DNA from: an uncultured Syntrophobacteraceae bacterium
Lineage (GTDB): Bacteria; Desulfobacterota; Binatia; UBA9968
Assembly (NCBI GenBank): GCA_964404195.1
Contig: CAYOJC010000007.1
Coordinates: 16,772 to 80,771, forward strand
Direction: 5' to 3'
DNA length: 64,000 nucleotides
A model generated the notes under the pieces. The model saw nothing but the letters and a program-made list of their open reading frames with translations, had not been told where the DNA came from and made no database searches. The first letter of the stretch is position 1. The number at the start of each line of letters is the position of its first letter. The translations under genes and the position numbers were made by a program. Below are positions 3,921 to 51,398 of the stretch, in pieces.

Positions 3921-5828
3921 ATGGATCTGAAAAAAAACGTTTGCAGGTCGGTCCTGGTTTTTTCGATCCTTGCCGGTGTTAATAGTCCGCCTGAACTCGT
4001 TGTCGCAGCCGATCGAGCCGTACTGTCGCCACGCCTGGACTCCTCCAAACTCGTCGTCCGAATAGAGCCTGAACGCCAAGAAGTAACCCAAGGAGATCCG
4101 GCGGTTTTTAAAAGCAAAACGGTTGCGGCTCCAGACAGGCGGCTCAATGAGTATTGGAGAGGGCCCGGCGACCAAAGTGGGAAAGGCCGCTCCTTCAGCG
4201 TGAACACCCGTCTACTTAGCCCCGGAGAATACCCAGTCGTTCTTGAGGTAGGCGATAGTCCGGAGGCTAGACCTCAGGCGACGGCTACTTTAGTCGTAAA
4301 GCCGAGGAAAACCAGGACGACTCCTCTACCGGAAGGGCGACCGGAGGTTAGTAGCCCGGCGGAGCCTCCGGTCAAACGAAAGCTGCCAAGAGATGTTGGG
4401 CCGCCTCCTACATCGGATGCAACGCTGGATTCTGGCGGACGGCGGAGACAGCCGGTTAAACCACCGCCATCGGAAAGCCCTAAAGCATCCAAACTCGTCG
4501 CCACGATATATCCCGACCATCGCGATGTGACGCAAGGAGAGTCGGCTGTCTTTGAAAGCAAAACGCGTTCTGCCCCAAACAGCCGGCTCAATGAGTCCTG
4601 GACCGGACCTGGAAGACAGCGCGCGCTGGGTCGTTCCTTCAGCGTCAATACCGATGAACTCAGGCCCGGAAAATATCGCGTGAAACTTGATGTCAGTAAC
4701 AACTTGGAGGAATCAGCTTACGCATTCGCCATTTTAGAGGTAATACCGAAGAAGGTTAGGACGCCTCCCCCATCGGAACCGCCGCCGGTAGTTGGTAGAC
4801 TGCCGGAACCGCCGAGAAGACCGAAGCCGACCATCTCGCGGCTTAGTGCCAGAATAGATCCTGAGTATCAAGAAGTAATACAGGGAGAGCCCGCCTTTTT
4901 TGAAAGTAACACGGTTTCGGATTCAAACAGCCGAATCACTGAGTTTTGGATAGGACCCGGGAAACAGAGAGAGCGGGGTCGCTCCTTCAGCGTGAACACC
5001 GGCGAACTCGAGCCCACGAAGTATCGAGTGATCCTTGACGTTCGGGATGATCGAGAGGGCAAAGATCAGGCGGTGGCCACTTTTGTGGTAAGACCAAAAC
5101 CAAATCCACCGAGGGAAGGGCTGCCATTGGTCCCACCAGGTTCGCCGTCAAATTTAGGCGAACCGCTGGACTCGCCCGTTCAGAATGAGGTCGCGCCGCA
5201 GTCCTCACCGAAGGCCCCGACACGCCCGGTCGAACCACCGGCGCCTACGGTTGAAAAGAAAGTTGCGCGGCCTTCCCCGAAGAAGTCACCGGTGCTACCG
5301 CCTGTAGCCCGGATTGTACCTAGACTGTTGGAAGTTGGAGGGGGAGAAATTGCCATTTTCGACGGCAGTCAATCCCGCGGCTCGATTCAGGAAACATCTT
5401 GGAAGCTGGACCCTTCGGGGGCGCAAGGAAATAACCGGTCATTTGAAATAAATACCGCGCAGTTGAAGCCGGGTTCCTATAACGTGATTCTCGACGTGGT
5501 CGACAATCAGGGTCTCAGAGCCACAGACACTGCTGTTTTGATTCTCAGAACTCCTAAGGGAATCGATTGGGCGCTGATCTTAGAATTCATGGCCGCGGGA
5601 ATTGTAGGAGGAGCTATTGGATGGTGGTTTACGAAGGGCGGAACATTTCCACCAGGAACGGACATTCGAGTTGTCTCAAGCAGTGGCGCGGGCCGCCAGG
5701 AGGTCCAATCCGAGATGGACATCTTTTCGGCGCCGGTGCTTCGGATAAGAAGCCGCTCCGAGACCAGCCTTATGGCGGTCGACTCGGATGCGGTTATCGT
5801 CAAGGAAGTGCGGAGGATTCATGAGTGA
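3921..5828 (+). CDS. Membrane-anchored protein with four PKD/Ig-like repeats and Pro-rich linkers
   Basis: It has a signal peptide. Four ~86-aa repeats lie at about nt 4047-4304, 4491-4751, 4839-5096 and 5301-5558; the first three share QG.(P/S)A.F.S.T......R..E.W.GPG.Q...GRSFSVNT..L.PG.Y.V.L.V, the fourth matches it only loosely. A TM helix ALILEFMAAGIVGGAIGWWF is followed by a ~65-aa tail. Confidence 0.8.
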   Translation: MDLKKNVCRSVLVFSILAGVNSPPELVVAADRAVLSPRLDSSKLVVRIEPERQEVTQGDPAVFKSKTVAAPDRRLNEYWRGPGDQSGKGRSFSVNTRLLSPGEYPVVLEVGDSPEARPQATATLVVKPRKTRTTPLPEGRPEVSSPAEPPVKRKLPRDVGPPPTSDATLDSGGRRRQPVKPPPSESPKASKLVATIYPDHRDVTQGESAVFESKTRSAPNSRLNESWTGPGRQRALGRSFSVNTDELRPGKYRVKLDVSNNLEESAYAFAILEVIPKKVRTPPPSEPPPVVGRLPEPPRRPKPTISRLSARIDPEYQEVIQGEPAFFESNTVSDSNSRITEFWIGPGKQRERGRSFSVNTGELEPTKYRVILDVRDDREGKDQAVATFVVRPKPNPPREGLPLVPPGSPSNLGEPLDSPVQNEVAPQSSPKAPTRPVEPPAPTVEKKVARPSPKKSPVLPPVARIVPRLLEVGGGEIAIFDGSQSRGSIQETSWKLDPSGAQGNNRSFEINTAQLKPGSYNVILDVVDNQGLRATDTAVLILRTPKGIDWALILEFMAAGIVGGAIGWWFTKGGTFPPGTDIRVVSSSGAGRQEVQSEMDIFSAPVLRIRSRSETSLMAVDSDAVIVKEVRRIHE

Positions 5829-6390
5829 TCCCCAGTTGACGCTCAAGAGATTCTTTTTCGATGAAGCTTCAGACGGTCGCCGGGCGATCGAGCAGAGCGG
5901 CGCCGGTCAACAGCTCTCTAAAGCGCTCGACAAAGTGCCGGCGTCATTGCGGGACAAGGCCAGGCAAGAGTTGGACACGAAGCTCGGGGAGGCTCTGGAC
6001 GTGGACCTGGTCCAGGTCCTGCTCGGAGGCTGGAATAAGTACCGGCAGCTACAACAATTTCGTGATCGTGCCAAGTACCCGAAGGACCAAATCTGTTTAC
6101 TCTCTCTCGCCAGCCACAGCATGAAGTCTTCCCACCGTATCACGTTTGAAATCGTGGCTGGGGAGGTCCCGCTGTTCCGGCTCGAGTTCGACGCCGTCGT
6201 GGCGCTGACGCTTGAAGGAATTGTGCTCAAGGTGCGCGACGCGCGGATCCGGGAGATCTCGAACGGGCGCTGCCGGGGCAAAGGGACGCTTCAGTTGAAG
6301 GGCACAGTGATCTTCGAAAAGGAGAGCCCGTACTTCGACCTTCCGGGTCGAATCGATCTCGGCGATGGGATCGAGATACCGGGGTCCTGA
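5821..6390 (+). CDS. Hypothetical protein, translationally coupled to the PKD-repeat protein
   Basis: The ATG at 5821 overlaps the upstream stop codon (ATGAGTGA). The ORF is 189 aa and I recognise no domain. Confidence 0.6.
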   Translation: MSDPQLTLKRFFFDEASDGRRAIEQSGAGQQLSKALDKVPASLRDKARQELDTKLGEALDVDLVQVLLGGWNKYRQLQQFRDRAKYPKDQICLLSLASHSMKSSHRITFEIVAGEVPLFRLEFDAVVALTLEGIVLKVRDARIREISNGRCRGKGTLQLKGTVIFEKESPYFDLPGRIDLGDGIEIPGS

Positions 6391-6625: not shown

Positions 6626-6707
6626 AAATTTTATTAACAGACGGCGAACCCCGCTCCAATCGGGGAAATCCCGCAGGAAGGTAAAGCGGGCAGGCTAACC
6701 TCCCGAG

Positions 6708-6735
6708 TTGCCGTCGGGCGGCTACCGTGTATAAT
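6708..6735 (+). promoter_or_regulatory. Putative sigma70-type promoter of the usp gene
   Basis: TTGCCG (6708-6713), a 16-nt spacer, then TATAAT (6730-6735). It lies ~45 nt upstream of the 6778 start. Confidence 0.4.
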
Positions 6736-6777
6736 TACCCGACCCGAGCCCGCGCCAACCACGAAAGGAGAATCGCG

Positions 6778-7299
6778 ATGAGGCTGTTGGACTTCAGGAG
6801 AATTCTCTGCCCGGTGGATCTCTCCAGCTCTTCCCTGGAGGCGCTCAAGCTGGCCGTCAAGATGACCCAGGCCAGCGGAGCGACGCTGTATCTGCTGCAC
6901 GTCATCGACAATCCCTTTGACGAACTCTATATGAGTTCGATCGCTCAGGCCGACCCCGCGCTCCTCGGGCTGTATAAAAGCGAGCCCTTGAAGCGCGCTC
7001 GAATCGTGCGCGCGACGGAAGATCACTCCGAGGTGCTGCTCAAACAGTTCTCCAACGAATGGGTCGGCGCGCTGCCTAAAGTGAGATATCGGATCGAGAG
7101 CGGCAATCCTTTCGAAGCCATTCTCGATACCGCGGAAACGACGCGAGCGGACCTCATCGTCCTCGCCACGCACGGCAGGACCGGCATCAAAAGACTCATC
7201 ATCGGAAACGTCGCCGAGAAGGTTGTCCGTCACGCGTCTTGCCCAGTGCTGATCGTATCGCCGCGCGCCGCCAGACGCCGCCGGAGCGGCAAGGCCTAG
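6778..7299 (+). CDS. Universal stress protein (UspA family)
   Basis: Motifs: RILCPVDLS, LYLLHV, ADLIVLATHGRTGIKRLIIGNVAEKVVRHASCPVLIV. An RBS gaaaggag precedes the ATG at 6778. Confidence 0.85.
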   Translation: MRLLDFRRILCPVDLSSSSLEALKLAVKMTQASGATLYLLHVIDNPFDELYMSSIAQADPALLGLYKSEPLKRARIVRATEDHSEVLLKQFSNEWVGALPKVRYRIESGNPFEAILDTAETTRADLIVLATHGRTGIKRLIIGNVAEKVVRHASCPVLIVSPRAARRRRSGKA

Positions 7300-11179: not shown

Positions 11180-12613
11180 TCAGCGCGGCTTTCGCAGAAT
11201 GGGGCCCCATTTTTCGCGCACCTGCCGCTCGTATTCCGGCGTGAAGGTCATATGCTTGCCGAACTGCTCGATCCAGTCCCAGGGTTTGCAGGCGTCGATC
11301 AGCACCCGGCCGCAGGTCAGGTCCCACGATTCCCGCTTCTTCGGACTCATGATCGGATCGACGCGCGTGCTCACCGTGCCGCGCACGATGTCGATCTGCT
11401 CTTCGGGCAGGCAGCGCGTGGTCATGGCCCAGAGCACGTCGTTGAGATTCGACGGATCGATGTCTTCGTCAACCACGACGTAATACCGGTAGGCGCTGTT
11501 AGAGCCGCGGACGCCGACCGCCGTGAGCAGCGCCATCTTCGCATGGCCGGCAAAGGCCTGCTTGAGCGAGATGACGATGAAAAGCCCGTTGGCGTGCGCC
11601 CACACGCCGCGGATGCCGGGCAGCGCGCTTTTCTCCAGCGCGTCCCAGACCGCGATCGCGGCGTGCGTGATCGTGCCGACGCTGATATTGCGGTTGTTCT
11701 GATGCGGGCCGGTAAGGATCGGGTCGTTACGGTGATAGATCGCCTTGATCTTGATGACCGGCTGGGGATGCGGTTCCTGGCTGTAGTAGCCCGGCCATTC
11801 GCGGTACGGCCCTTCGGTGCGCGCGTCCTCTTCAGGCGGCGGCACTTCGCCTTCTATTGCAATTTCCGCCGCCGCCGGGATCGGGAGCCCGGTCATCTCG
11901 CCTTTGATGATATCGATCGGATGGCCCGCCATTCCTCCGGCGACCTCCAGCTCCGATTTTCCCCAGGGCGAGCTTCCCGTCGAGGCTTGAAACAATTCAA
12001 CCTGCTGGCCGTAGCAGGCGACCACGGGACACGCCTTGCCCTTGGCCCAATATTTTTTCGCGATGATCATCCCGTGATGATGGGGCTCGACGAAAAATCC
12101 CACGGTCTTCTCGTCGTGGATCATCTGCCGGTAAGTCCCCATGTTGACCCAGCCCTCGTCCGGGTCGCGGTTGATGACGAGCGTCGTCGTGCCGATGTAG
12201 CGGCCGCCTTCCAGCATGCGCCACTTGGGCGTGGGGAATTTTAAAATATTGACTTTGTCGCCGCGGTCCTGGTTCTCCAGGATCGGCCCCGAGGCGACTT
12301 CGCGCGGCGGAATGAGAACGGTTTCTTTTCGCTTTTCCTTCATCGCGCGCGCGATCTCCAGGTCGCTCAGGTCCATCGGAATGCCGAGCGCCAGCGCCTG
12401 CTTCTTAGGGTTGTTCTGAAGATTGGTAAGCGCGCGAAAGCCCGCCGGATATCCCGGGATCTTGTCGAAGATCAGCACCGGGTTGTCTTCGGTTTCCTGC
12501 ATCATCTGCGAGATTGCGCCGATCTCCAGGTCCCAATGCGCGCCCTCGACGACGCGCAGCATGCCGAGCTTGTCGAGCGCGTCGAGATAGTCTCTCAAAT
12601 CGCTGTATCCCAT
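11180..12613 (-). CDS. UbiD-family (prFMN-dependent) decarboxylase, paralog 1
   Basis: 477 aa. The N-terminus MGYSDLRDYLDALDKLGMLRVVEGAHWDLEIGAI is typical of UbiD/Fdc-like enzymes, and family-like similarity runs the full length. Confidence 0.9.
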   Translation of the reverse strand: MGYSDLRDYLDALDKLGMLRVVEGAHWDLEIGAISQMMQETEDNPVLIFDKIPGYPAGFRALTNLQNNPKKQALALGIPMDLSDLEIARAMKEKRKETVLIPPREVASGPILENQDRGDKVNILKFPTPKWRMLEGGRYIGTTTLVINRDPDEGWVNMGTYRQMIHDEKTVGFFVEPHHHGMIIAKKYWAKGKACPVVACYGQQVELFQASTGSSPWGKSELEVAGGMAGHPIDIIKGEMTGLPIPAAAEIAIEGEVPPPEEDARTEGPYREWPGYYSQEPHPQPVIKIKAIYHRNDPILTGPHQNNRNISVGTITHAAIAVWDALEKSALPGIRGVWAHANGLFIVISLKQAFAGHAKMALLTAVGVRGSNSAYRYYVVVDEDIDPSNLNDVLWAMTTRCLPEEQIDIVRGTVSTRVDPIMSPKKRESWDLTCGRVLIDACKPWDWIEQFGKHMTFTPEYERQVREKWGPILRKPR

Positions 12614-16302: not shown

Positions 16303-17883
16303 TTACCTTCCCGTGCGCGCCAGGGAATGAACCCAGCCGACCATGCGTGATTTAGCGTTCTGAATATCTTTGTCACTAAAAAATTTCTTGAGATCGACTT
16401 TGCCGACCGGGTAGACCGGGCGCATGAAGTCGCTCTCGTAGCCGAACGGCACGGTCGCGTCGATGCCCATGCCGCCTTCGAAGCTGGTGTTGGATGCCGT
16501 CCATTCTTTCTCGCCGGCGGTCATGCGCTCGGCCGGCATAAAGGTCTGGCCGCGTCCGCCCGGCAGCGGATTGATGATGTCGGTCTTGGGATTCACGCGC
16601 GTCGTGAGACACCACATGACGTCGTCCATGTCGTACGGATCGGTGTCTTCGCTGACGGCGATGACGAGGCGCGAGCCCTGTGACGTGGCGAGGATCGCGG
16701 CCATGAAGTTGCGCTGCCAGCCTTCTTCGATCTTGTTGCGCTTCTTGACCTGGATAATCGCTCCACCCCAATCGGTCATGCAATAAGGAATGTTCACGTC
16801 CATGACGATGCCGGGCTGCATGCGCTCGCACAGCTCGAACATAGCCGCCTCGCGCACGGTCGTATCGATGTTATGGTCGTCGAGGGTATGGACGCCGAGC
16901 GGAAAAATAATCGGCTTGGACTCGCGCTTGCGTGTGGTCACGGCGGTGACGTGGAACGTCGGCGCTTTGTACGCCTTGCCCATGTAGCCGGCCCATTCCG
17001 GATGGAAATGAAAGCGGCCCTGAATCCCGGCCTTCTCCGACTCCGCCGTTTCGAAGCGGCGGTCGCGCGGATTGACATAGCCTTCGAGCACGACTTCCGC
17101 ATCGGCGACCGCCAGTGCATCGACGGTGCGTGCTTTCACCAGCCGCACGGGAGCGCCTTGGATGGCGCCCGCGCTGCCGACTTCATCGCAGCCTTGCGGA
17201 AGAATGACGTAGTCGAAACCGGCGCCCGCCATCAACGTGCAGGACGGCGGCAAGCCGAAGTTCATCGTGATCGGCACCAGCTTTTTCTCTTTGTAATACT
17301 TGGTGACGACCTGCCACATGTGCGAGCCGGGGGAGATCTGAAACGTACCGACGTTGCCCCAGCGGAAGTTCATCCGGTTGTAGCCGAGGTCGGTGCCGCC
17401 GTCGAAGTACTCGCCCGAGATCAGCCGGTTGCCCGAACCGACGGTCAATTCGGGCTCGAGGTCGGTGTGCCGGATCGGCACGACGAATTCAGCGGCGTCG
17501 ATCGGCTTCTCGTAAACTTCTTCCTGCACCGGCGCGTCTTTTTGGTCGATGATGACGGGCTTCAAAGGATGGGTCAGCGCATAGGCCAACTTTCTCGTGC
17601 GGTCGGCATGGTCTTTCCAGCCGAACATTTTACCGATGACGTTCATGTCGCCGAAAAGGTTCGTGACGCAGCGATGCTTCGGCTTGCCTTTGATGTTGTT
17701 GAAAAGGATCGGGCAACCGCCGTCCAGTTGTTTCTGGATGCCGGTGATCTCCAGGTTGGGATCGACCTCTTTATCCGTGACGATAAGATCGCCTTCCTGC
17801 TTGAGCCATTCGAGGGTACTGCGCAGGTCTCGGATAGCCTCGGACCGCGGGGCCCCAGAGACTTTCTCCATGGGCTTGCTCAT
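16303..17883 (-). CDS. UbiD-family (prFMN-dependent) decarboxylase, paralog 2
   Basis: 526 aa with UbiD-like organisation (LRSTLEWLKQEGDLIVTDKEVDPNLEITGIQK...). It diverges from paralogs 1 and 3. Confidence 0.88.
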   Translation of the reverse strand: MSKPMEKVSGAPRSEAIRDLRSTLEWLKQEGDLIVTDKEVDPNLEITGIQKQLDGGCPILFNNIKGKPKHRCVTNLFGDMNVIGKMFGWKDHADRTRKLAYALTHPLKPVIIDQKDAPVQEEVYEKPIDAAEFVVPIRHTDLEPELTVGSGNRLISGEYFDGGTDLGYNRMNFRWGNVGTFQISPGSHMWQVVTKYYKEKKLVPITMNFGLPPSCTLMAGAGFDYVILPQGCDEVGSAGAIQGAPVRLVKARTVDALAVADAEVVLEGYVNPRDRRFETAESEKAGIQGRFHFHPEWAGYMGKAYKAPTFHVTAVTTRKRESKPIIFPLGVHTLDDHNIDTTVREAAMFELCERMQPGIVMDVNIPYCMTDWGGAIIQVKKRNKIEEGWQRNFMAAILATSQGSRLVIAVSEDTDPYDMDDVMWCLTTRVNPKTDIINPLPGGRGQTFMPAERMTAGEKEWTASNTSFEGGMGIDATVPFGYESDFMRPVYPVGKVDLKKFFSDKDIQNAKSRMVGWVHSLARTGR

Positions 17884-20935: not shown

Positions 20936-20992
20936 AGCGGCAGCGTGAACGATTAAGTGCTCTAACGGAAAAAGAATGGCGAGAGACTCGCT

Positions 20993-21616
20993 ATGAACTG
21001 CTCATCCAGTCGCAATCTCTTGCTCCTTATTTTCTGCTGCACTTTTCTCTCATGTATAGGGTGTGGAGCCTTGACGGAGATCAGCATCACGGACACGCAG
21101 TTCAAGAGTTCGATTATCGCAACGAACGACGAGGAAGATTTCAGAGGATTTTTCTTCGACTCTTCGGACGTGCTGATACCGCGTGATTACCTGGCCGATA
21201 CGTGGGAGAATCACGTCGGCAGCTCGATTCGAATCGTGGAAGGAAAGCATCGGGTCCTCTTCATAGATCTGTTCAAAAATCCGGTGCCGGGCATGATCGA
21301 CGAGGAGTTCGGCTATAAGCTGTTAATTCAATTCTCTCCCGACTCGGACAAAGACGCGATTTATTTTTCGGACTCATCGGATAGCAGCACGGCGATTGCC
21401 CATTACTTCCACTTCGGCCCGGGTTCCGTTCACTGCTGGTGGACCCAGCCGGTGGGTAAAATCGATTTGCGGAGGACCTCTTCAGATACGCTCGATGGGG
21501 AATTGAACCTGACTTTCCTTGCTGAATCTTCCACGAAACTGTGCCAGGGCCGTTCCGTCTCATTTCGCGGCAAGTTCTCTGTGCCAAAGCGAAGCGATAG
21601 GAAGCTCTTCCGGTGA
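20993..21616 (+). CDS. Hypothetical lipoprotein
   Basis: The N-terminus LLLLIFCCTFLSCIGCG is lipobox-like. It lies in a low-G+C region and I recognise no family. Confidence 0.55.
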   Translation: MNCSSSRNLLLLIFCCTFLSCIGCGALTEISITDTQFKSSIIATNDEEDFRGFFFDSSDVLIPRDYLADTWENHVGSSIRIVEGKHRVLFIDLFKNPVPGMIDEEFGYKLLIQFSPDSDKDAIYFSDSSDSSTAIAHYFHFGPGSVHCWWTQPVGKIDLRRTSSDTLDGELNLTFLAESSTKLCQGRSVSFRGKFSVPKRSDRKLFR

Positions 21617-21694
21617 GCAAATGTTGAACCTACCATCTGTCCCGACGGCTGCTACGATGAAAGTACAGAAGTTTTTGAGCAATAAAATTAACGG

Positions 21695-22123
21695 ATGAAC
21701 GATCGAGTGATAGAGCCGGACGGGAGCCAGGACTTTGGGCCGTGCGAGTGCTGCGGCGACAACAGCCGCACCGTCTGGGGATTGGTTCACCGAGATAACT
21801 GCACGGAGGCTGCTTACTTCGTACACTGGTCGCTCGGCAAGGTCGCCGACAAGGGCGCGTATATCGACCTCATCCTTGGGCCCTGGGGTGAGGGAACCGA
21901 CCGAGCCGATCGGTACGCAGTCTCGCTGGAATTTCGCCAGGGATTCGGAGTCAAAATTATTGATGCCAGCGTACGAAATATTGCGCGTCATAGCATGGTG
22001 GGGCGAGGGCTGGTGCGAGAGGACGTCGTTATGACGCCACTGGCTCAGGAAGTCTTTGAGATCCTGGATTTCATCTGGGTACAGGATGGGCGCATCGCAG
22101 AAGTGACGGGAGAAGTCCCTTAA
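21695..22123 (+). CDS. Hypothetical protein with N-terminal CxCC motif
   Basis: 142-aa ORF (GPCECCGDNSRTVWG...). The antisense ORF 21560..22237 was judged less protein-like. Confidence 0.5.
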   Translation: MNDRVIEPDGSQDFGPCECCGDNSRTVWGLVHRDNCTEAAYFVHWSLGKVADKGAYIDLILGPWGEGTDRADRYAVSLEFRQGFGVKIIDASVRNIARHSMVGRGLVREDVVMTPLAQEVFEILDFIWVQDGRIAEVTGEVP

Positions 22124-22191
22124 CTTTGTGAGCATATTATCAAGATTCAAGACTTGATTCTGAAAGACTTGTGGGCTAACCGAGTCGAAAC

Positions 22192-23217
22192 ATGCGATAC
22201 GACGAAAACGATATTGATTTCTCAACGCTTGATCCATCGGTCTTCGAAGAACTGTGCTTTGATCTTTTAATCCGTTTGGGGTTTCAAGAACTCCAGTGGC
22301 GCCGGGCAGGTGCGGACAGTGGTCGCGACATTGAAGGCAAATGGCTGGTTCAGTTGCCTATTATCGGTGCCTCTCAAGAGACTTGGGCTATCGAGTGTAA
22401 GCACTATTCTCGTGGCGTTCCGCCCGATGCTTTGTCATCAAAGTTTTCCTGGGCCGACGCAGAAAGACCAGATCGTCTGCTGATATTTGTGAGCTCGCAT
22501 TTGACGAACGGTGCAAGAGACTGGCTCTCGAAACGTAAGAAGCAGGTGTCTTACCGGGTGCACGTTGTCGAAGGCAAGACGCTCCGCCAGCAACTGATCG
22601 CTTACGATGAGTTGGTTGAGCGCTACTTTGGCGGCCGATACGCCCGTCTATTAAGTCAGGCATTTGAGTCGTGGGCTCTTCATGGACTCATTCCATCCCT
22701 CGAGACACTTGGCATCTTGCTAAACCACATAGACCCAACGAAGCTAACGATCGACGAGGTCGCATTCCTATGGTGTGTTCGGCTCTTCAGGAAGGACGAA
22801 ATCCATAGTTGGGAGGAGGGCGAAGAAAAGACTTTTCCGGGAAGCGTTCTTTTAGATCAGTTAAGTGCAAGTACGAACATGTGCGCGAGCGTAATCGATC
22901 CATACCACAGCGTGATCTTTCATGGGACTTCAATATCGAGCACGGGGCGTCTCACCGAGGATGAGAGCAAGCAGGACCATTCCTATTTCGCGGAGATCCT
23001 GGTAGACCGCGGCCAAGGCCCACGGATTGCACTGTACGCTTATCATGCCTCCGGCACTGGGAGTGGCTGCGAAGTTCTTGTAGTCGCTGGTGCACGTCCA
23101 GAGGCATCAGTACGTTATCTGCAAACCAACGCCTACGTAGCATTCAGGCAGACTGAAGCGCTTATGTTGGAGCGGTATTCTGCAAGATCTCGACGAACTG
23201 ATGTCCGAGAAACGTAA
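22192..23217 (+). CDS. Mrr-like PD-(D/E)xK restriction-endonuclease-domain protein with an unknown C-terminal half
   Basis: FEELCFDLLIRLGF...GADSGRDIEG...WAIECKHY matches Mrr_cat-type D...ExK architecture. I do not recognise the ~190 C-terminal residues. Confidence 0.65.
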   Translation: MRYDENDIDFSTLDPSVFEELCFDLLIRLGFQELQWRRAGADSGRDIEGKWLVQLPIIGASQETWAIECKHYSRGVPPDALSSKFSWADAERPDRLLIFVSSHLTNGARDWLSKRKKQVSYRVHVVEGKTLRQQLIAYDELVERYFGGRYARLLSQAFESWALHGLIPSLETLGILLNHIDPTKLTIDEVAFLWCVRLFRKDEIHSWEEGEEKTFPGSVLLDQLSASTNMCASVIDPYHSVIFHGTSISSTGRLTEDESKQDHSYFAEILVDRGQGPRIALYAYHASGTGSGCEVLVVAGARPEASVRYLQTNAYVAFRQTEALMLERYSARSRRTDVRET

Positions 23218-23310
23218 ATGGGGACAGAGAACATGAAGGAGGACTTTACTGATCATTTGCGCTTCAGCCTGTCACCATAAGCGTCCTTGTCTGAGTCTGA
23301 GTGTCGGAGC

Positions 23311-23502
23311 CTATTTTGGCAGAAAATCTTCCAACCTAACCGTCTCCCAACCCATCGGCTTCAATCTTTCGAACGGCATGCGCGCTTCTTTGCCGGCGCA
23401 CAGCGGCGGCGTGGTCGCGTCGATAATCACCTTGCCGCCGACGCGGTGCCAGTACTGTCCGCCGGGAGGGATGGGCTCGTCGCCGGTCGGGTCTATCGGA
23501 TG
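23311..23502 (-). pseudogene. Displaced 3' fragment (63 codons plus TAG) of the UbiD paralog 3 gene, copy C
   Basis: My translation gives HPIDPTGDEPIPPGGQYWHRVGGKVIIDATTPPLCAGKEARMPFERLKPMGWETVRLEDFLPK*. The intact gene ends ...HPMDPTGDEPIPPGGQYWHRVGGKVIIDATKPPLCAGKEARLPFERLKPMGWETVRLEDFLPK*. Confidence 0.85.
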
Positions 23503-23575
23503 GGCCGAAGAAAATGTACCGGGAGTCTTTTCTGCTCCCGCTTATCCCGCGCGCCATTAGACGCCTTAACTCACT

Positions 23576-23589
23576 TCATGTATACATGA
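23576..23589. promoter_or_regulatory. Perfect 14-bp palindrome, candidate TA operator
   Basis: TCATGTATACATGA lies 4 nt upstream of the GTG start of the DUF4258 gene. Confidence 0.4.
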
Positions 23590-23592
23590 GTT

Positions 23593-23934
23593 GTGGCCGA
23601 GCGTAAGCTCCCGGACGATCCTACATCATTCATCCGTGACTGCCTTCACGGTGGCCGGATTTTGTGGACGTACCATGTCAACATGCGCTTGGGACGGAGG
23701 TTCATCGCCCGCGAGACGATTATCTTGGCCGCCGACAGCTACGAAATTGTCGAGGCCTACCCGGAGGACAAATACTTTCCGAGTTATCTGCTCCTTGGCC
23801 GACAGGGCGAGGAGACGTTTCATGTGCTGTTTGGAGCCGATGTAGATGGTCAGAACGTTCGACTTGTCACGGCATATTATCCCAGCCCCGAGGAGTGGGA
23901 AATCGATTTGAAAACACGAAGGAGGTCCTCATGA
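23593..23934 (+). CDS. DUF4258-domain toxin-like protein
   Basis: ILWTYHVNMRLGRRFIARETI...IVEAYPEDKYFPSYLLLG....ETFHVLF......VRLVTAYYP matches the DUF4258 pattern as I recall it. Confidence 0.75.
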   Translation: MAERKLPDDPTSFIRDCLHGGRILWTYHVNMRLGRRFIARETIILAADSYEIVEAYPEDKYFPSYLLLGRQGEETFHVLFGADVDGQNVRLVTAYYPSPEEWEIDLKTRRRSS

Positions 23935-24152
23935 AGTGCACGGTTTGTGGCGCCGGTATGAATCGGATCAAGACCGACCTGCCGTTTAAGTTGTCGGAAG
24001 ACCGCATTGTCATCTTCAAGCAACTGCCGGTCTTGCAGTGTAAAGCGTGCCGCGAATATCTGATTGAGGATGCTGTTATGGCGCGCATCGACACTTTGCT
24101 TAGGCAGGCAGACAGTACGGCTGAACTCGAAGTGATCCGCTACGCCGCGTGA
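23931..24152 (+). CDS. YgiT-type zinc-finger (MqsA-family) antitoxin-like protein
   Basis: MKCTVCG...VLQCKACREYLI gives two CxxC pairs. ATGA overlap with the DUF4258 gene. Confidence 0.75.
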   Translation: MKCTVCGAGMNRIKTDLPFKLSEDRIVIFKQLPVLQCKACREYLIEDAVMARIDTLLRQADSTAELEVIRYAA

Positions 24153-24158
24153 GAGCCC

Positions 24159-24313
24159 TCACTTCGGCAAAAAATCTTCCAACCTCACCGTCTCCCACCC
24201 CATCGGCTTTAATCGCTCGAACGGCAGACGCGCTTCTTTGCCGGCGCAGAGAGGCGGCTTGGTCGCATCGATGATTACTTTGCCGCCGACGCGATGCCAG
24301 TACGGTCCGCCGG
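24159..24313 (-). pseudogene. Displaced 3' fragment (about 50 codons plus TGA) of the UbiD paralog 3 gene, copy B
   Basis: It encodes ...GGPYWHRVGGKVIIDATKPPLCAGKEARLPFERLKPMGWETVRLEDFLPK*, identical to the intact gene end except for one residue at the junction. ORF 24159..24485 is a chimera of this fragment with unrelated sequence. Confidence 0.85.
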
Positions 24314-24357
24314 AGCTTTTTCTTGCTAAATGGGGTTTTGCCAGGCACAATCGCGGC

Positions 24358-24549
24358 ATGACAAAAATGTCGCGAGTTCCGTCCAGGAAGGCTGAGTCAC
24401 GTTTCTCGGATGGACTTAGACCCGAGTACAAGAGGTCGGACTTCGGTGAGATAGTTCGCGGACAATACGCGCGACGCGTAAGCAAAGCGACAAACGTTAT
24501 CGTCCTTGATCCGAAAATGGCAAAGGCGTTTCCGAACGAGGGAAGATGA
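24358..24549 (+). CDS. Small antitoxin-like ORF (uncertain)
   Basis: 63 aa. EYKRSDFGEIVRGQYARRV...NVIVLDPKMAKAFPNE resembles a motif I associate with small TA antitoxins. It appears C-terminally short. Confidence 0.35.
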   Translation: MTKMSRVPSRKAESRFSDGLRPEYKRSDFGEIVRGQYARRVSKATNVIVLDPKMAKAFPNEGR

Positions 24550-24654
24550 TAAGGGAACAGTCCCTTTTTCAGCCTTCTACAGTCTGGTCAGGCGTGCGAT
24601 GAGCACCGAGGTCTGCTATACTTACGAGTAGCTCTGGAGCATCGGAGGTGTGAA

Positions 24655-24876
24655 ATGAGCAAGATCATAGAAGCAGTTTTCGACGGAAAGGTACTTCGTC
24701 CCAAAGACGCACTCACGCTTGAGCCGAATACTCGCGTGCGGATTACAATCGAACCCGTAGAGCCAATTGCCAAAGGGGACGTTTCATTTCTGGATACCGC
24801 CCTATCACTGAAGTTGGATGGCCCGCACGATTGGGCGGTGAAAATTGGGCGCTCATGTGACTGTCCACGACTATGA
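24655..24876 (+). CDS. DUF104 (AF2212-like) antitoxin-family protein
   Basis: MSKIIEAVFDGKVLRPKDALTLEPNTRVRITIEP is the typical DUF104 N-terminal beta-domain. Confidence 0.6.
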   Translation: MSKIIEAVFDGKVLRPKDALTLEPNTRVRITIEPVEPIAKGDVSFLDTALSLKLDGPHDWAVKIGRSCDCPRL

Positions 24877-24921
24877 TCCCGAAATATATGAACCGGATCA
24901 CAGGACAAGGAGAAAAACAAA

Positions 24922-25152
24922 ATGAAATGCGTGTTTTGTAAGCAGGGCAAGACCCACCCTCAGAAAGTGACGGTCGAGCGTCACAACCAGGCTGGTGAGC
25001 CGATTGCGGTCATCCATAACTTTCCTGCCGAGGTTTGCGAGGTCTGTGGGGAAGAATACTATTCAGCGAAGGACTGGCAGAAAGCCGAGCGCTTGCTTGC
25101 CAAGTCTCCTATCAAGGTGACTAGAGTGCCGGTCTATGAGCTGCATCCGTAA
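24922..25152 (+). CDS. YgiT-type zinc-finger protein (MqsA-like, no HTH)
   Basis: MKCVFCKQG...AEVCEVCGEEYY gives two CxxC pairs. 76 aa. Confidence 0.7.
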   Translation: MKCVFCKQGKTHPQKVTVERHNQAGEPIAVIHNFPAEVCEVCGEEYYSAKDWQKAERLLAKSPIKVTRVPVYELHP

Positions 25153-25179
25153 GAAAACGGTCTAGCGCTACCCTCACCC

Positions 25180-26568
25180 TCACTTCGGCAAAAAATCTTC
25201 CAACCTGACCGTCTCCCAACCCATCGGCTTTAACCTTTCAAACGGTAGCCGCGCTTCTTTGCCGGCGCAGAGGGGCGGCTTGGTCGCGTCGATGATGACC
25301 TTGCCGCCGACGCGATGCCAGTACTGTCCGCCGGGGGGAATGGGCTCGTCGCCGGTCGGGTCCATCGGGTGAATGCGCGTGCCGGGGATGATGACCATGT
25401 CTTCCTGCGGGTTGCAGCGCGTGTTGATCGCCCACAAAACTTCCCAGTAATTAAAAATATTCACGTCCTCGTCGACCGCAATCGCGATCTTCGGATGGAG
25501 AATCGGGCTCGACAGCACGCCCATCAAAACTTGCTTGGCCTCGCCGTAAAAGCGCGGCGTCATCTGCACGACGATGCCGAAGAGTCCGGGCAGAACCAAC
25601 AGGTTGTGCAGGTTGACGTAGCCGCCGATGTGTCGGATGTGGTTGTAGACCGCGACGCCGAACGGTACTTTGTGAAAGATGCAGCCTTCGACCTCCGAGC
25701 CGTTCTGAATCGCCTTGAAGATGGCGTCGTGGCGCATGGTGATGCAGTCGATCTCGATCACCGGATTTTTTCCCATGCCCGCGACGTAGTAGTCGTGGAA
25801 CTCGGAGAACGGCCCTTCCTCCTCGCGCACATTCGGCAGTATTCTTCCCTCCAAAACGATCTCCGCGTCGTACGGAACTTCCAGATCGTTGGTCTCGCAC
25901 TTGACGACTTTCGCCGGCTCGCCGATGAGCCCGCCGGCCAGCTCCAGCTCGTCCATCTCGAACGGCCCCGTGGTGGCGGCGGCCATGTAATATAAAGGAT
26001 GGTGGCCGATGAAGATCGCCACCGGCGTCGGCTCGTTCCGCTCCTCGTGCTTCGTGAGAATGGCCCGCGTGTGGCGCGGGACGATGAGCGCGCCGGTCTT
26101 GCGCGGTCCTTTGATTTGCAAGCGATGAAAAGCGACGTTGCGCACACCCGTGTCCGGGTCGCGCGCCACCAGCAGGCCCGACGCTATATAAGGAGTCTCC
26201 TCGCTGCCCGCGACATGCGCGGGAAGCTTAGTGAGATCGACCTGATCGCCCTTCAAAATAATTTCCTTTACCGGTCCGGTCGAGACTAGTTCCGTCGGTT
26301 GCCGCTTGAGCGCGCGCTCCGCTGCGGTGGGAATTAGCTTCTCGACCGTCGTGCCGTAGGCCAGCGCGGCGTGGCGCAGGTTCGCGGGCGCCATGCCGAG
26401 GCTTTTCCACTTCGGGAATCCCGCCACGTTTTCGAACAACAGCGCTTTCTCCCTCGACTGGTAGAGCAGCGCGCCCATCTGCGTGTGCGGATGAACGGGC
26501 TTGGTGATGTGAATCAGCTCTCCCGCAGTCTCAAGTTCTTGAATCCACGTGCGCATGTCCTTGGGCAT
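25180..26568 (-). CDS. UbiD-family (prFMN-dependent) decarboxylase, paralog 3 (intact)
   Basis: 462 aa. The N-terminus MPKDMRTWIQELETAGELIHITKPVHPHTQMGAL is typical of UbiD. Its last ~63 codons recur at 24159-24313 and 23311-23502. Confidence 0.9.
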   Translation of the reverse strand: MPKDMRTWIQELETAGELIHITKPVHPHTQMGALLYQSREKALLFENVAGFPKWKSLGMAPANLRHAALAYGTTVEKLIPTAAERALKRQPTELVSTGPVKEIILKGDQVDLTKLPAHVAGSEETPYIASGLLVARDPDTGVRNVAFHRLQIKGPRKTGALIVPRHTRAILTKHEERNEPTPVAIFIGHHPLYYMAAATTGPFEMDELELAGGLIGEPAKVVKCETNDLEVPYDAEIVLEGRILPNVREEEGPFSEFHDYYVAGMGKNPVIEIDCITMRHDAIFKAIQNGSEVEGCIFHKVPFGVAVYNHIRHIGGYVNLHNLLVLPGLFGIVVQMTPRFYGEAKQVLMGVLSSPILHPKIAIAVDEDVNIFNYWEVLWAINTRCNPQEDMVIIPGTRIHPMDPTGDEPIPPGGQYWHRVGGKVIIDATKPPLCAGKEARLPFERLKPMGWETVRLEDFLPK

Positions 26569-32664: not shown

Positions 32665-32786
32665 CCGATGATTCATCGACCTTAAAAACTTCGTGACCTT
32701 CGTGCTCTTCGTGGTGATAAGCTTTTTGACCACGAAGGACACGAAGCACACGAAGAAAGAACCTGCCCTGAGCGAAGCCGAAGGGC
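32665..32786. repeat. CTTCGTG/CACGAAG nonamer hairpin element plus GAGCGAAGCCGAAGG module
   Basis: ttcgtgaccttcgtgctcttcgtggtgataagctttttgaccacgaaggacacgaagcacacgaag is nearly identical to the cores at 38268-38350 (reverse) and 47266-47318. Confidence 0.8.
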
Positions 32787-38216: not shown

Positions 38217-38443
38217 GTTAGCTCGGATAATTCGCAGTTAAACATCCTCTCCGTAGGATACGTCTTCTTCCCCTGCGCCTCTTCCTTCGTGTGCTTCGTG
38301 TCCTTCGTGGTCAAAAAGTTTATCACCACGAAGAGCACGAAGGTCACGAAGTTTTTTAGTCCTCGCGCCAAGACGCAAAGAACGCTTTCCTTATCTAGAG
38401 TGTGTCGCAATCCTTCCTCGGTTGATGAGTAATCCAGGCCGGA
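38217..38443. mobile_element. 227-bp modular MITE-like repeat filling the ATPase-permease intergenic gap (short copy, reverse orientation)
   Basis: Its reverse complement is colinear with 46955-47057 plus 47267-47390. All modules are shared: gcctggatta.tcatc, gacacact.tagat.aggaaagcgttcttt, gcgcgagga.taaaaaac, the CTTCGTG hairpin, and cggagaggatgtttaac.g.gaattatcc. Confidence 0.85.
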
Positions 38444-46954: not shown

Positions 46955-47390
46955 AGCCTGGATTATTCATCGACCGAAAAAAGATCGTGACACACTTAGA
47001 TGAGGAAAGCGTTCTTTAAGTCTTGCGCGAGGATTAAAAAACTTCGTGACCTTCGTAATACTATGCCTGTAAGTTTTCGCGGTTTGCGCAAATTTTCTTG
47101 CGCACCGATCCTAAGTTGCGGAATCGACAAGAAAATACGATCTCACCACGAAGCACACGAAGGCCACGAAGGATTCGTATATTTTATACTTTTGAACTTC
47201 GTGCTCTTCGTGACCTTCGTGGTGAAATGTCTGTTTCTGCTTTGGTTGCGGCGTAGCCGCGCTAGGCTCTTCGTGGTGATAAACTTTTTGACCACGAAGG
47301 ACACGAAGCACACGAAGGAAGAGGCGCAAAGGAACAAGGCGTATCCCCTACGGAGAGGATGTTTAACGGTGAATTATCCCGGGTAGCTCG
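46955..47390. mobile_element. Modular MITE-like repeat, long copy carrying a ~205-bp nested insertion
   Basis: It is colinear with the reverse complement of 38217-38443, except for extra DNA at about 47058-47266 inserted inside the CTTCGTG tract. That insert contains its own CACGAAG/CTTCGTG hairpin (47146-47222). Confidence 0.8.
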
Positions 47391-48644: not shown

Positions 48645-49616
48645 ATGAAAAAAAAGATCGTCGTCGCGCTCACGGTGTGCGGGGCGAGGGCAGAGGCGCA
48701 GCAGCTAACGAAAAGTCCCCGGATAGGATACTTAGCTGGTTCCTCCCCTTCCGCTGCCTCGGCTCGCATTGAGGCGTTCCGGCAGGGTTTGCGCGAGCTT
48801 GGCTACGTGGAGGGGAAAAACATTGTCATTGAGTATCGATATGCAGAGGGAAAACTAGATCGCCTCCCCTCGCTCGCGGCCGAGCTAGTGCATCTCAAGG
48901 TAGATATCATCGTCACCGCCGGTCCGATACCAACTCGTTCCGCTAAGGAAGTAACTTCCACGATTCCCATTGTCATGACGCAGGATCCCGATCCTGTTGG
49001 CAATAGTTTCGTCGCCAGTCTGGCGCGGCCTGGCGGAAACATTACTGGATTGGCAACCCTTGCCCCGGAGATAAGCGGGAAACAACTGGAGCTTCTGAAG
49101 GAGATCGTTCCCAAGCTCTCGCGCGTGGCCGTCTTCGGGACTTCGATCTTCCCAGGCAACGCACAAGCGTTAAAAGAGATCGAACTCGCCGCAAAGGCGT
49201 TCGGGGTGAAGCTTCAATACCTAGACGTACTAGGTCCCAAGGATATCGAGACTGCATTCCGAGCCGCCGGCAAGGGGCGGGCTGAAGCAATCCTTATGAT
49301 GGTGGCGGGTGGCGTCGCCGGTGCTCACCGAACAGAGATTGTCGAACTCGCGGTAAAGAGCCGGCTCCCGGCGATATACGAAAGGCGAGAATATGTGGAC
49401 GATGGTGGCCTCTTATCCTATGGGACAAACTTCGTTAACTTGTCCCGGCGTGCTGCTACGTATGTGGACAAGATTTTGAAAGGCGCCACGCCCGCCGACC
49501 TGCCGGTGGAACAGCCGACAAAGTTCGAGTTCATCATCAGTCTGAAAGCGGCGAAGCAGATCGGCCTCATGATTCCGCCGAACGTGCTGGCCAGAGCCGA
49601 TAAAGTAATCCGATGA
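48645..49616 (+). CDS. ABC transporter substrate-binding protein (COG2984/ABC_sub_bind-like)
   Basis: It shares with its paralogs PRIGYL, GKNIVIEYRYAEGKLDRLPSLAAELVHLKVDIIV, IPIVM, ARPGGNITG and PVEQPTKFEFIISLKAAKQIGLMIPPNVLARADKVIR. Confidence 0.88.
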   Translation: MKKKIVVALTVCGARAEAQQLTKSPRIGYLAGSSPSAASARIEAFRQGLRELGYVEGKNIVIEYRYAEGKLDRLPSLAAELVHLKVDIIVTAGPIPTRSAKEVTSTIPIVMTQDPDPVGNSFVASLARPGGNITGLATLAPEISGKQLELLKEIVPKLSRVAVFGTSIFPGNAQALKEIELAAKAFGVKLQYLDVLGPKDIETAFRAAGKGRAEAILMMVAGGVAGAHRTEIVELAVKSRLPAIYERREYVDDGGLLSYGTNFVNLSRRAATYVDKILKGATPADLPVEQPTKFEFIISLKAAKQIGLMIPPNVLARADKVIR

Positions 49617-49622
49617 TCGAAC

Positions 49623-49683
49623 AATCCAAAACCTGTCCTGAGCGAAGCCGAAGGATCGGAAATCTAAAATCCAAAATCGGAAG
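49623..49683. repeat. TCCAAAA tract / CCTGTCCTGAGCGAAGCCGAAGG module / TCTAAAA-TCCAAAA tract
   Basis: aatccaaaacctgtcctgagcgaagccgaaggatcggaaatctaaaatccaaaatcgg belongs to the same family as 131-168. Confidence 0.75.
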
Positions 49684-49849
49684 CCGGGCGGATAGGGTAG
49701 TACGGTAAGGCGACACCGAATGATTTGCGATACAAAGATTGTTCGCATTGTCGTTTCGCGCGTCGAGGTGCGTTTCGAGCCAGAAGAAATCGCGCTGGTC
49801 GACTCGGAAGTCTGGTGAAGTTTTCTACTTCAGAGTAAGGGTCAGAGTC

Positions 49850-51208
49850 GTGATACTGCTCGAACTGCTCAAGCAATCCGAAGGCAAAACGCTGGAGTTT
49901 AAGCGAGACTTATCGTCCCCAGACGGCATAATGCGTTCGATCGTCGCGTTCGCCAATACGGCAGGAGGCACAGTGCTGATTGGAGTAGAGGACAAGTCGC
50001 GGCACGTTCGCGGCGTTAAGGAGCCGCTCGCTGTGGAAGAGCGCTTGGCCAATCTGATTAGCGATAACATCGTGCCCAAGCTGGTACCAGAGTTGGATTT
50101 ACTTCCCTGGCGTCGTACGCACGTCCTCGCCTTGCAAGTGTTTCCAAGCCCAGCGCGGCCCCACTATTTGAAGACCTTTGGAGTGGAAAATGGCGTCTAC
50201 GTTCGTGTGGGCTCCACTAACCGCCGCGCGGATGCCGAGATGATCGCGGAACTGCGGCGGTTTGCGCGGGGCGAAAGCTTCGACGAACAACCGATGCCGG
50301 AACTCGACTCTGAAGCGCTTGACTTCAGAGTAGCTTCCGAGCTGTTTGCTCCAGTACGTCGCCTGAAACCCCACGATCTGGAAGGTCTAAAATTGATCAC
50401 CAGACATCAAGGCCGGAAGGTGCCAACGGTTGGTGGAATATTACTTTTTGGAAAAGAGCGGGAGCGATATTTTCCCGATGCATGGATACAGGCGGGCCGA
50501 TTCCGGGGAAAAGATCGCAGCCACATTCTCGACACCGTGGAGATCCGTGCCCCCTTGCCGCTTGCCGTGGAACAGGCAATCGCGTTTGTCCGCAAACACG
50601 ACACTCGAGCGGCGGAAATTGGCACGGTGCGAAGAATCGAGCGGTGGGGCTTGCCACCGGCCGCGGTGCGGGAAGCGCTGATCAACGCCGTGGTTCATGC
50701 GGATTATGCCCAGCGCGGCGCGCCGGTCCGCATATCGATATTTGACGACCGCTTGGAGGTAGAAAACCCCGGACTCTTACCCTTCGGTCTTACGATCGAA
50801 GACCTCCGCCATGGCATATCGAAGCTGCGAAACCGAGTCCTGGGGCGAGTTTTTTACTTACTCGGACTGATCGAACAGTGGGGCAGCGGAGTCGAGCGGA
50901 TGACAGTTGCCTGCCACAACGCCGGACTGGCAGCGCCGCACTTGGAGGAGATTGGCACCCATTTCCGAGTCTCGTTGTACACTGCGCGTGACTATTCGCT
51001 CCGTGTGGATGAGATTGAAAAGGCGATTCTCCACGCAATGGCGGGTGGCAACGGATTATCCACTCAGGAAATCGCCGCCAAGATCGAACGTTCGGCGCGG
51101 GCCACTCGCACACGGTTGCTTGCGCTGGTTGCGCGCGGTTTGGTCGCTGAAGTCGGCACAAGTCCGCAAGACCCCAGACGAAAGTATTTCCTTTTGGACC
51201 GGAAATGA
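49850..51208 (+). CDS. AlbA_2 (Schlafen-like) / HATPase_c_4 / wHTH protein ('putative DNA-binding ATP-binding protein')
   Basis: EGKTLEFKRDLS....IVAFANTAGGTVLIGVED is the AlbA_2 region. ALINAVVHADY....PVRISIFDDRLEVENPG is HATPase_c_4-like. The C-terminus is wHTH-like (LSTQEIAAKIERSARATRTRLLALVARGLV). The GTG 49850 start is inferred. Confidence 0.78.
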   Translation: MILLELLKQSEGKTLEFKRDLSSPDGIMRSIVAFANTAGGTVLIGVEDKSRHVRGVKEPLAVEERLANLISDNIVPKLVPELDLLPWRRTHVLALQVFPSPARPHYLKTFGVENGVYVRVGSTNRRADAEMIAELRRFARGESFDEQPMPELDSEALDFRVASELFAPVRRLKPHDLEGLKLITRHQGRKVPTVGGILLFGKERERYFPDAWIQAGRFRGKDRSHILDTVEIRAPLPLAVEQAIAFVRKHDTRAAEIGTVRRIERWGLPPAAVREALINAVVHADYAQRGAPVRISIFDDRLEVENPGLLPFGLTIEDLRHGISKLRNRVLGRVFYLLGLIEQWGSGVERMTVACHNAGLAAPHLEEIGTHFRVSLYTARDYSLRVDEIEKAILHAMAGGNGLSTQEIAAKIERSARATRTRLLALVARGLVAEVGTSPQDPRRKYFLLDRK

Positions 51209-51364
51209 TCGCGAGTCACGATTGGAACTTTTTGTGATATTTATTTCCTCCGAAACTTGGTTACTAAACGGCATTGTCGTTCGCTCGGGCGATACGTCTG
51301 ACAATTGCGGGGACTAAGACATGACTGAAACATCTCGAACTGCATTTCCGTGGTTCCAACCCGA

Positions 51365-51398
51365 CAATCTAAAATCGAAAATCCAAAGTCTAAAATCG
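51365..51398. repeat. TCTAAAA/TCGAAAA/TCCAAAG heptamer tract
   Basis: caatctaaaatcgaaaatccaaagtctaaaatcg lies immediately upstream of the likely SBP start at 51399. Confidence 0.7.

Follow-up and report, generated by a model that had tools for sequence, protein, structure and literature searches.

Integration of the e14 prophage or of phage 21 at the icd gene of Escherichia coli leaves a displaced fragment, icdC, and the working and displaced ends differ mainly at synonymous sites, according to PMC13626634 (which cites Hill 1989, Campbell 1992 and Wang 1997). Here we analyse a comparable locus in a 64,000-nucleotide (nt) stretch of DNA (contig CAYOJC010000007.1, hereafter the window) from an uncultured member of Candidatus Binatia, in which the 3' end of a gene for a UbiD-family decarboxylase (ubiD) occurs three times: once as the working end (copy A), and twice as displaced, 5'-truncated copies (B and C) that alternate with small cassettes of the toxin-antitoxin (TA) type. 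Among described systems, e14 at icd/icdC is the nearest precedent: there too the insert supplies a replacement 3' end of a metabolic gene and the old end is left downstream as a C-terminal fragment. However, the 15-kb prophage e14 encodes an integrase of its own and always crosses over at one fixed site, whereas the ubiD locus and its counterparts contain TA cassettes of only 0.65-0.9 kb without an integrase, with variable truncation points, stacked copies and several target genes.

Other described systems share parts of this layout. In marine cyanobacteria, islands of the tycheposon type comprise cargo-only elements located between partial copies of the end of the target gene; they use tRNA targets and dedicated recombinases, whereas here the targets encode proteins and no recombinase is visible. 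In Campbell-type insertion-duplication and homology-facilitated illegitimate recombination (HFIR), one homologous anchor suffices to add foreign DNA, and a circle with a 3' gene fragment yields an intact gene followed by a truncated copy. One-anchor addition of this kind would give an intact ubiD and a truncated copy, but to our knowledge it is known mainly from laboratory constructs and transformation, and not as a natural, recurrent, TA-stabilised way of building arrays. In streptococci, integrase-less elements flanked by att repeats pile up beside the 3' end of a housekeeping gene. The streptococcal repeats are short identical att cores served by the integrase of a partner element, while those at ubiD are 120-230 nt of diverged coding sequence with no partner in sight. 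Such tandem accretion at the 3' ends of conserved genes has been described for integrative and conjugative, integrative and mobilizable, and cis-mobilizable elements (ICE, IME and CIME; PMC5704250, PMC7563491). Finally, integron cassettes integrate outside integrons at attG sites (Loot 2024) and TA cassettes limit cassette loss (Richard 2024), both as cited in PMC12614218. The ubiD array resembles an integron array in its small, TA-rich cassettes of uniform orientation, one of which (cassette 2) carries a TTAGAC stretch that aligns with the canonical boundary, but it has no attC, attI or intI, and an antisense copy of the end of the host gene stands in the place of attC. We know of no case in which attG insertion duplicates 100-200 nt of the target.

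A search of the literature turned up no account of TA cassettes flanked by long, diverged copies of a gene end. Repeated horizontal insertion at one locus is a broadly known kind of record; what sets this case apart is the combination of tiny cassettes, lack of integrase and attC, long diverged repeats, variable junctions and several genes.

Silent divergence between the three gene ends

Throughout the text, W denotes the locus in the window and L-numbers denote contigs of relatives used for comparison. Both displaced copies lie downstream of ubiD in the same orientation, in frame, without insertions or deletions and with the stop codon retained (coordinates of all features are listed in Table 1). 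The codon-aware alignment of A, B and C, anchored at the stop codons, required no gaps, and the synonymous divergence (dS) and the ratio of non-synonymous to synonymous divergence (omega) were estimated by the Nei-Gojobori method. A and B differ at 13 of 150 coding nucleotides (1, 1 and 11 at the first, second and third codon positions), with a single amino acid change (Q/P), omega of 0.019 and dS of 0.47. A and C differ at 20 of 189 coding nucleotides (2, 1 and 17), or at 22 of 192 if the two differences in the stop codon are added, with three amino acid changes (M/I, K/T and L/M; omega 0.046, dS 0.53), and B and C at 19 of 150 (3, 2 and 14; three changes, omega 0.037, dS 0.72). Third positions account for 11/13, 17/20 and 14/19 of the differences, respectively. 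Random placement of the same number of substitutions gave amino acid changes that few in 0 of 20,000 trials, and Fisher tests of synonymous versus non-synonymous differences returned 4e-8 (A-B), 1e-8 (A-C) and 1e-9 (B-C). Neither B nor C contains a frameshift or an internal stop; A and B terminate with TGA and C with TAG.

These values agree closely with the preliminary description of the locus, made by eye, which had counted about 14 substitutions in 155 nt and one amino acid change for A versus B, had given for A versus C exactly the figures found here (about 22 in 192 nt; M to I, K to T, L to M), and had assigned the three stop codons correctly. The formal estimate of dN/dS that it had proposed gave omega of 0.019-0.046, and the computed alignment reveals neither an even spread of substitutions over codon positions nor frameshifts overlooked by eye. 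One detail has to be corrected: the Q-to-P change had been ascribed to the junction, but P is the residue that relatives usually have at this site, and Q is shared by A, C, L001 and L002, therefore the difference is not a junction artefact.

Origin of the displaced ends

Compared with a panel of 25 intact ends and the other displaced copies, B and C show only two private states each. The TAG stop, the P residue and the 'ARMPF' string are ordinary alleles among relatives, and almost all variant states of the two copies are shared with functional alleles from other genomes of Candidatus Binatia, which argues that the copies were drawn from a pool of working ends, with very little decay since, and did not originate by decay in place. 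For the whole gene, dS between W and its relatives amounts to 0.14 for L079 (the nearest), 0.31-0.33 for L001 and L002, and 0.74-0.96 for L003 and L008. The copy-to-copy values (0.47-0.72) fall within the range between Binatia species (0.31-0.96), thus B and C are as distant from A as species are from one another. Displaced copies elsewhere have decayed, by an in-frame stop (L001), a 30-nt deletion (L008) or six amino acid changes (L040); this indicates that such copies are not under selection, as the preliminary description had maintained, and that B and C are young. A history without transfer, in which a duplicate formed in place decays neutrally, was considered and rejected: it would make about half of the differences non-synonymous, as opposed to the observed 1/13, 3/20 and 3/19, and it is also at odds with the omega values and the shared alleles.

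The presence of three mutually diverged copies together with the silent-site bias implies at least two transfers between lineages, and on these comparisons we regard the horizontal origin of at least two of the three ends as solid. The earlier proposal that the copies diverged while serving as functional C-termini in different lineages is supported by omega, by the shared alleles and by dS at the interspecies level. Its further claim, that at least two ends arrived horizontally together with the cassettes, stands as regards the horizontal origin, while the physical arrival with the cassettes is plausible rather than established. Both the gene body and copy A are mosaic, so that an exchange of the end subsequent to a duplication is another possible course. 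Over its first ~125 nt copy A is identical to L079, which the gene body of W also matches; over its last ~70 nt it has diverged and has states in common with copy B; the body of ubiD is in addition mosaic against L001 and L002. Homologous recombination between lineages is rampant at this locus.

One segment bears directly on the linkage between ends and cassettes. Although ubiD as a whole differs from L079 by only ~3%, an imported tract that reaches from the final 95 nt of ubiD across the spacer into the 3' end of the adjacent antitoxin gene carries 24 differences in 180 nt (13%), against 36 in 1140 nt of its surroundings (Fisher p = 1.8e-7). This is the form in which the incongruence between gene end and gene body, anticipated in the preliminary description, was seen. 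As the tract spans both the gene end and the flank of the cassette, the two have moved together at least once, the one direct hint of their linkage.

Recurrence in relatives and at other genes

Arrays of truncated ends were found in 10 related contigs (W, L001, L002, L003, L008, L040/L118, L050, L051, L079 and L109), all within a clade with at least ~90% protein identity. In eight intact/displaced pairs from six genomes, 83 of the 112 differences occupy third positions; like the copies in W, with omega of 0.02-0.05, the displaced 3' fragments differ mostly synonymously, as at icd. In contrast to the one fixed junction of e14, there are at least six different truncation points, situated ~60, 123, 132, 153, 156, 156 and 192 nt before the stop codon. 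The homology between copies ends sharply 2-8 nt past the stop, often at GGTT(T)A. Sites without cassettes exist in L009, L038 and L106, with a transporter gene directly after ubiD in the former two, and the flank past the displaced copy in L001 corresponds to the flank of the intact end in L106, although these are distant relatives at the species level. The cassettes in the arrays are all of the TA type and all in one orientation; they encode a zinc-ribbon protein with DUF4258, ParE with Phd, ParE with another small partner, an Xre/MqsA-like helix-turn-helix (HTH) protein, or a DUF6036/AbiEii-like nucleotidyltransferase. In L008, copies 1 and 2 are 96.7% identical. In L050, the last ~57 nt of ubiD and the flank of the next cassette are repeated almost exactly (4860-4960 versus 5686-5781), up to the contig end, which may reflect either a fresh tandem duplication of the gene end with its ParE cassette or an assembly effect.

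Similar arrangements occur at genes other than ubiD. L129, from the same metagenome-assembled genome (MAG) as L002, has the 611-nt TA unit of cassette 2 at the 3' end of a glyoxalase gene, bracketed by a displaced end of 227 nt (5727-5953 versus 6681-6906); the two ends share 80% nucleotide identity and encode a nearly unchanged protein, with one frameshift. On the same contig, the 3' end of trmI (GCD14) is duplicated around two small open reading frames (ORFs) (4140-4258 versus 5095-5213; 119 nt, 96% identity). In the ubiD-transporter island of another Binatia contig (L063, 10132-13141), four copies of a ~100-nt unit, composed of a 5S-like 3' half (29.7 bits against Rfam 5S_rRNA, below the family threshold) and a terminator, alternate with PIN/antitoxin and RelE/ribbon-helix-helix (RHH) cassettes.

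Organisation of the locus

The intact gene product matches UbiD_N, UbiD and UbiD_C, all above the Pfam cut-offs, which places it among the UbiD decarboxylases; its orthologues (85-98% amino acid identity) are found in MAGs of Candidatus Binatia, the uncultured group to which the host belongs. All small genes between the copies converge on ubiD. The A-B interval (cassette 1) contains a 76-residue (aa) zinc-ribbon antitoxin, an AF2212-like ORF and a 63-aa ORF, the B-C interval (cassette 2) a DUF4258 toxin and a 73-aa zinc-ribbon antitoxin, and copy C is followed by a gene for an Mrr-type nuclease and two hypothetical genes. The Mrr_cat gene is missing from the cassette-free L106, where the 142-aa gene directly follows ubiD. 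The G+C content (GC) is 0.50-0.53 over ~20950-25180 and ~0.60 outside. No tRNA or tmRNA gene that could serve as a target is present in the 64-kb window. The order conserved in relatives is a spermidine-synthase/TPR gene, ubiD, the variable island and an ABC-transporter operon.

Table 1. Features of the ubiD locus (positions in the window)
Feature	Positions	Strand	Remarks
UbiD-family decarboxylase, intact, 462 aa	25180-26568	minus	Pfam UbiD_N, UbiD, UbiD_C
Copy A, working 3' end	25180-25371	minus	last 192 nt of ubiD; stop TGA
Imported recombination tract	25095-25274		versus L079; last 95 nt of ubiD, spacer and 3' end of antitoxin gene
Zinc-ribbon antitoxin, MqsA/YgiT-like, 76 aa	24922-25152	plus	now orphan; weak match to Pfam MqsA_antitoxin
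Remnant of DUF4258-type toxin gene, last ~21 codons	24856-24921	plus	cassette homology with all relatives stops at 24856
AF2212-like small ORF, antitoxin-type	24655-24876	plus	Pfam AF2212-like, residues 1-40 only; 3' end runs into the breakpoint
63-aa ORF	24358-24546	plus	distal part of cassette 1; 0 Pfam matches
Copy B, displaced 3' end, 5'-truncated	24159-24311	minus	50 codons + TGA; stop-anchored alignment
Cassette 2, conserved 611-nt unit	23544-24154	plus	from promoter region to 2 nt past antitoxin stop
Zinc-ribbon antitoxin, 73 aa	23931-24152	plus	4-nt overlap with toxin gene; stop 6 nt from stop of copy B
DUF4258 toxin, 113 aa	23593-23934	plus	Pfam DUF4258, E = 1e-13; >1000 homologues
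Palindrome CATGTATACATG	23577-23588		in promoter region of cassette 2
Integron-type cassette boundary TTAGACGC	23557-23564		left edge of cassette 2 unit
Copy C, displaced 3' end, 5'-truncated	23311-23502	minus	63 codons + TAG; stop-anchored alignment
Mrr_cat restriction-endonuclease-like gene	22192-23217	plus	Pfam; distal island cargo
Two hypothetical genes (207 aa, 142 aa)	20993-22123	plus	close the low-GC island; 142-aa gene is a conserved neighbour in most relatives

The 76-aa antitoxin of cassette 1 shares 89-97% identity with its counterparts in L001, L008 and L040, which are paired with a DUF4258 toxin, and the L001 and L008 toxins match Pfam DUF4258. Homology with this cassette extends from the end of ubiD as far as the breakpoint at 24856, which leaves just the last ~21 codons of the toxin gene and is the same against six relatives (L001, L008, L040, L051, L079 and L109). 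The AF2212-like ORF is probably what is left of a second cassette that a deletion joined to the first; this deletion would have removed two toxin genes and one copy of the gene end and left two orphan antitoxins.

Two further UbiD-family paralogues are encoded on the minus strand of the window (11180-12613 and 16303-17883), adjoining genes for CoA-transferase and NMT1-type binding proteins; neither has duplicated ends. Elsewhere in the window, the riboflavin operon is broken, between ribD (47429) and ribE (52491), by three genes (48645-52358), namely two ABC_sub_bind paralogues, whose 3' ends form the repeat family D1, on either side of a Schlafen/AlbA_2 + HATPase_c_4 gene. Another ABC_sub_bind gene (210-1287) is seemingly split into ORFs 210-683 and 784-1287, which could indicate a pseudogene or a sequencing frameshift. 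A CACGAAG-rich intergenic repeat of 57 nt is present in three copies (32704-32760, 38300-38356 and 47266-47322), 70-96% identical.

Integron ancestry of cassette 2

The genes for the DUF4258 protein and the zinc-ribbon protein are kept as an adjacent pair in more than 10 contexts, as is typical of type II TA systems, and the pair is predicted to be a TA module of this type. The 611-nt unit recurs with 90-92% nucleotide identity in other genomic contexts in L128 and L129. The left edge of the unit, in W as in L128 and L129, can be aligned with the boundary TTAGACGC of the copies in L135 and L136, where the same TA pair lies between repeats of true attC architecture. On the strength of these alignments, the origin of cassette 2 as an integron cassette can be regarded as demonstrated. 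In cassette 2, however, TTAGACGC is preceded by A, not G, and by 13 nt that are common to L129; since these 13 nt lie upstream of the canonical G|TT crossover point, that move was not a canonical integrase event.

L135 (Binatia MAG JBFWZL010000232) contains at 660-2960 an integron-style array of HicA/HicB, HicA/HTH and DUF4258/zinc-ribbon cassettes, the third of which is the TA pair of cassette 2. They are parted by ~110-nt repeats in which CTAAC pairs with GTTAG in a 32-bp imperfect hairpin, i.e. with attC architecture, and repeats of this type are also present at 3862-3974 of L136 and 24-135 of L137. An Rfam search of L135 yielded no matches. A covariance model of the genuine L135 attC sites recovers the sites in L135, L136 and L137; at E <= 1 it gave no match anywhere in the window or the ubiD arrays. 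Nor could the sequences beside B and C be read by eye as halves of a split attC. Likewise, no recombinase, integrase (including intI) or transposase was found among the ~55 ORFs of the 64-kb window, and the islands of W, L001, L002, L003, L008, L040 and L050 contain no integrase, only TA-type and hypothetical genes.

The region downstream of glmS is the classic attachment region of Tn7. A homologue of the cassette 2 pair (L141, 3969-4560; 79% protein identity for the toxin) is located 32 nt downstream of glmS, and neither transposon genes nor a repeat were detected there.

Possible mechanisms of array formation

We favour, with a probability of roughly 0.55, the explanation that homology-anchored additive recombination brings a gene end together with a cassette from diverged lineages, and that the TA genes stabilise the product. 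The locus would then be a stack of scars left by repeated additive recombination at the 3' end of ubiD, each event having delivered DNA of a related but diverged Binatia lineage in which a complete gene end is followed by a small TA cassette. Homology inside the gene would anchor the exchange, either through a single crossover of a circular molecule composed of gene end and cassette (Campbell-type insertion-duplication), or through one homologous crossover combined with an illegitimate joint; the reading frame would be restored, and the resident end would come to lie downstream as a relic without its 5' part. Recombination between direct repeats usually expels the DNA that they enclose. Because TA modules are addictive, insertions that carry them may persist despite such pop-out-prone repeats, and this would account for the near-exclusive presence of TA cassettes. 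Given the integron origin of the cassettes, the first insertions may go back to an integron integrase. The variable truncation points, the several target genes, the failure to see an integrase and the silent divergence all fit a homology-driven process. The mode of recombination, the stabilising role of the TA modules and the deletion that fused the cassettes are inferences. More tentatively, Binatia might possess a cassette system that operates without a dedicated recombinase, in which TA cassettes escaped from integrons travel as units of gene end and cassette, insert by ordinary homologous recombination at the 3' ends of conserved genes throughout the genome and are locked in place by their TA genes, the gene end taking the role of attC/attI.

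Several observations weigh against homology-driven addition. Neither a circular intermediate nor direct evidence of RecA dependence is to hand; B or C is the working end in none of the sampled contigs, where the closest ends differ by 8.5-10%; there is no copy of the gene end beyond the Mrr_cat gene, i.e. this cassette lacks a distal copy; and the 80% identity of the glyoxalase ends in L129 is low for homologous recombination. Moreover, three unrelated cassettes cut the gene end within 3 nt of one another (153, 156 and 156), beside a CGGCGG motif, and the junctions at 123 and 132 lie at a second CGGCGG motif, a clustering that hints at a preferred site of cutting or joining and not at random breakpoints, while the GGTT(T)A at which homology ends could be a recombination core. 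Such grouped junctions would suit the site-specific integration of elements that resemble CIMEs or satellites, lack an integrase and depend for their mobility on a recombinase encoded elsewhere, with attB in the 3' end of ubiD and, in each element, an attP that contains the replacement end, as in e14 and phage 21 at icd. This alternative, which we consider rather unlikely, would also account for the sharp distal boundary of homology just past the stop, for the single orientation of the cassettes and for the silently diverged displaced ends, as reported for icd/icdC in PMC13626634, and it could draw on the integron-type boundary of cassette 2, as integron cassettes enter genomes at attG (Loot 2024, cited in PMC12614218). 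However, no integrase is encoded in the 10 arrays or in the 64-kb window, no attC is present in the arrays, the truncation points are at least six in number, and the 13 nt upstream of G|TT are common to the window and L129 units; in addition, L129 has this TA unit enclosed by the end of another gene, and other genes behave alike, for which one enzyme would not be sufficient.

The order of events may also have been the reverse, with an exact local duplication first and the working end overwritten later, so that B and C would be earlier resident alleles. The near-exact repeat of gene end and downstream cassette flank in L050, the close similarity of the two copies in L008, the recombination tract that replaced the gene end in W relative to L079 and the mosaic body of ubiD are all in line with such a course, although the L050 repeat reaches the contig end and is possibly an assembly effect. 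We nevertheless find it less likely again than site-specific integration, because it requires at least two separate replacements, each covering the end, because B differs from C as much as from A (dS 0.72), and because the gene body of W and the first 125 nt of A match L079, from which B and C are 9-10% away, therefore neither looks like a recent resident allele of the W lineage. That the displaced copies are still expressed or functional, and acquired their silent bias in place, is very improbable: B and C do retain open frames and stops, and B lies within an ORF that starts with TTG (24159-24485), but the first ~400 codons of the protein are missing, the equivalents in relatives have a stop, a 30-nt deletion, a frameshift or many replacements, and nearly all variant states are common to functional alleles elsewhere. 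Hardly credible, finally, is an artefact of assembly or binning in which reads of several strains were joined into a spurious tandem array. Chimeric repeats can arise from mixed strains in a metagenome, which is the source here, but an independent Logan assembly (L049, reported from two samples) has the identical arrangement, similar arrays occur in many separate MAGs and metagenomes, and each copy has unique flanks; on the first two of these grounds the artefact was rejected.

Implications

The displaced gene ends represent time-stamped samples of the alleles of other lineages. They show directly that an uncultured soil phylum exchanges DNA across species-level divergence and that the turnover of its cassette arrays outpaces the divergence of the host gene. 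Should the integrase-free mechanism hold, selfish TA modules, former integron cassettes included, would have a simple and general way of entering the ends of housekeeping genes while leaving these genes unbroken, and a truncated, silently diverged gene end beside a TA pair would provide a signature to search for in any genome.

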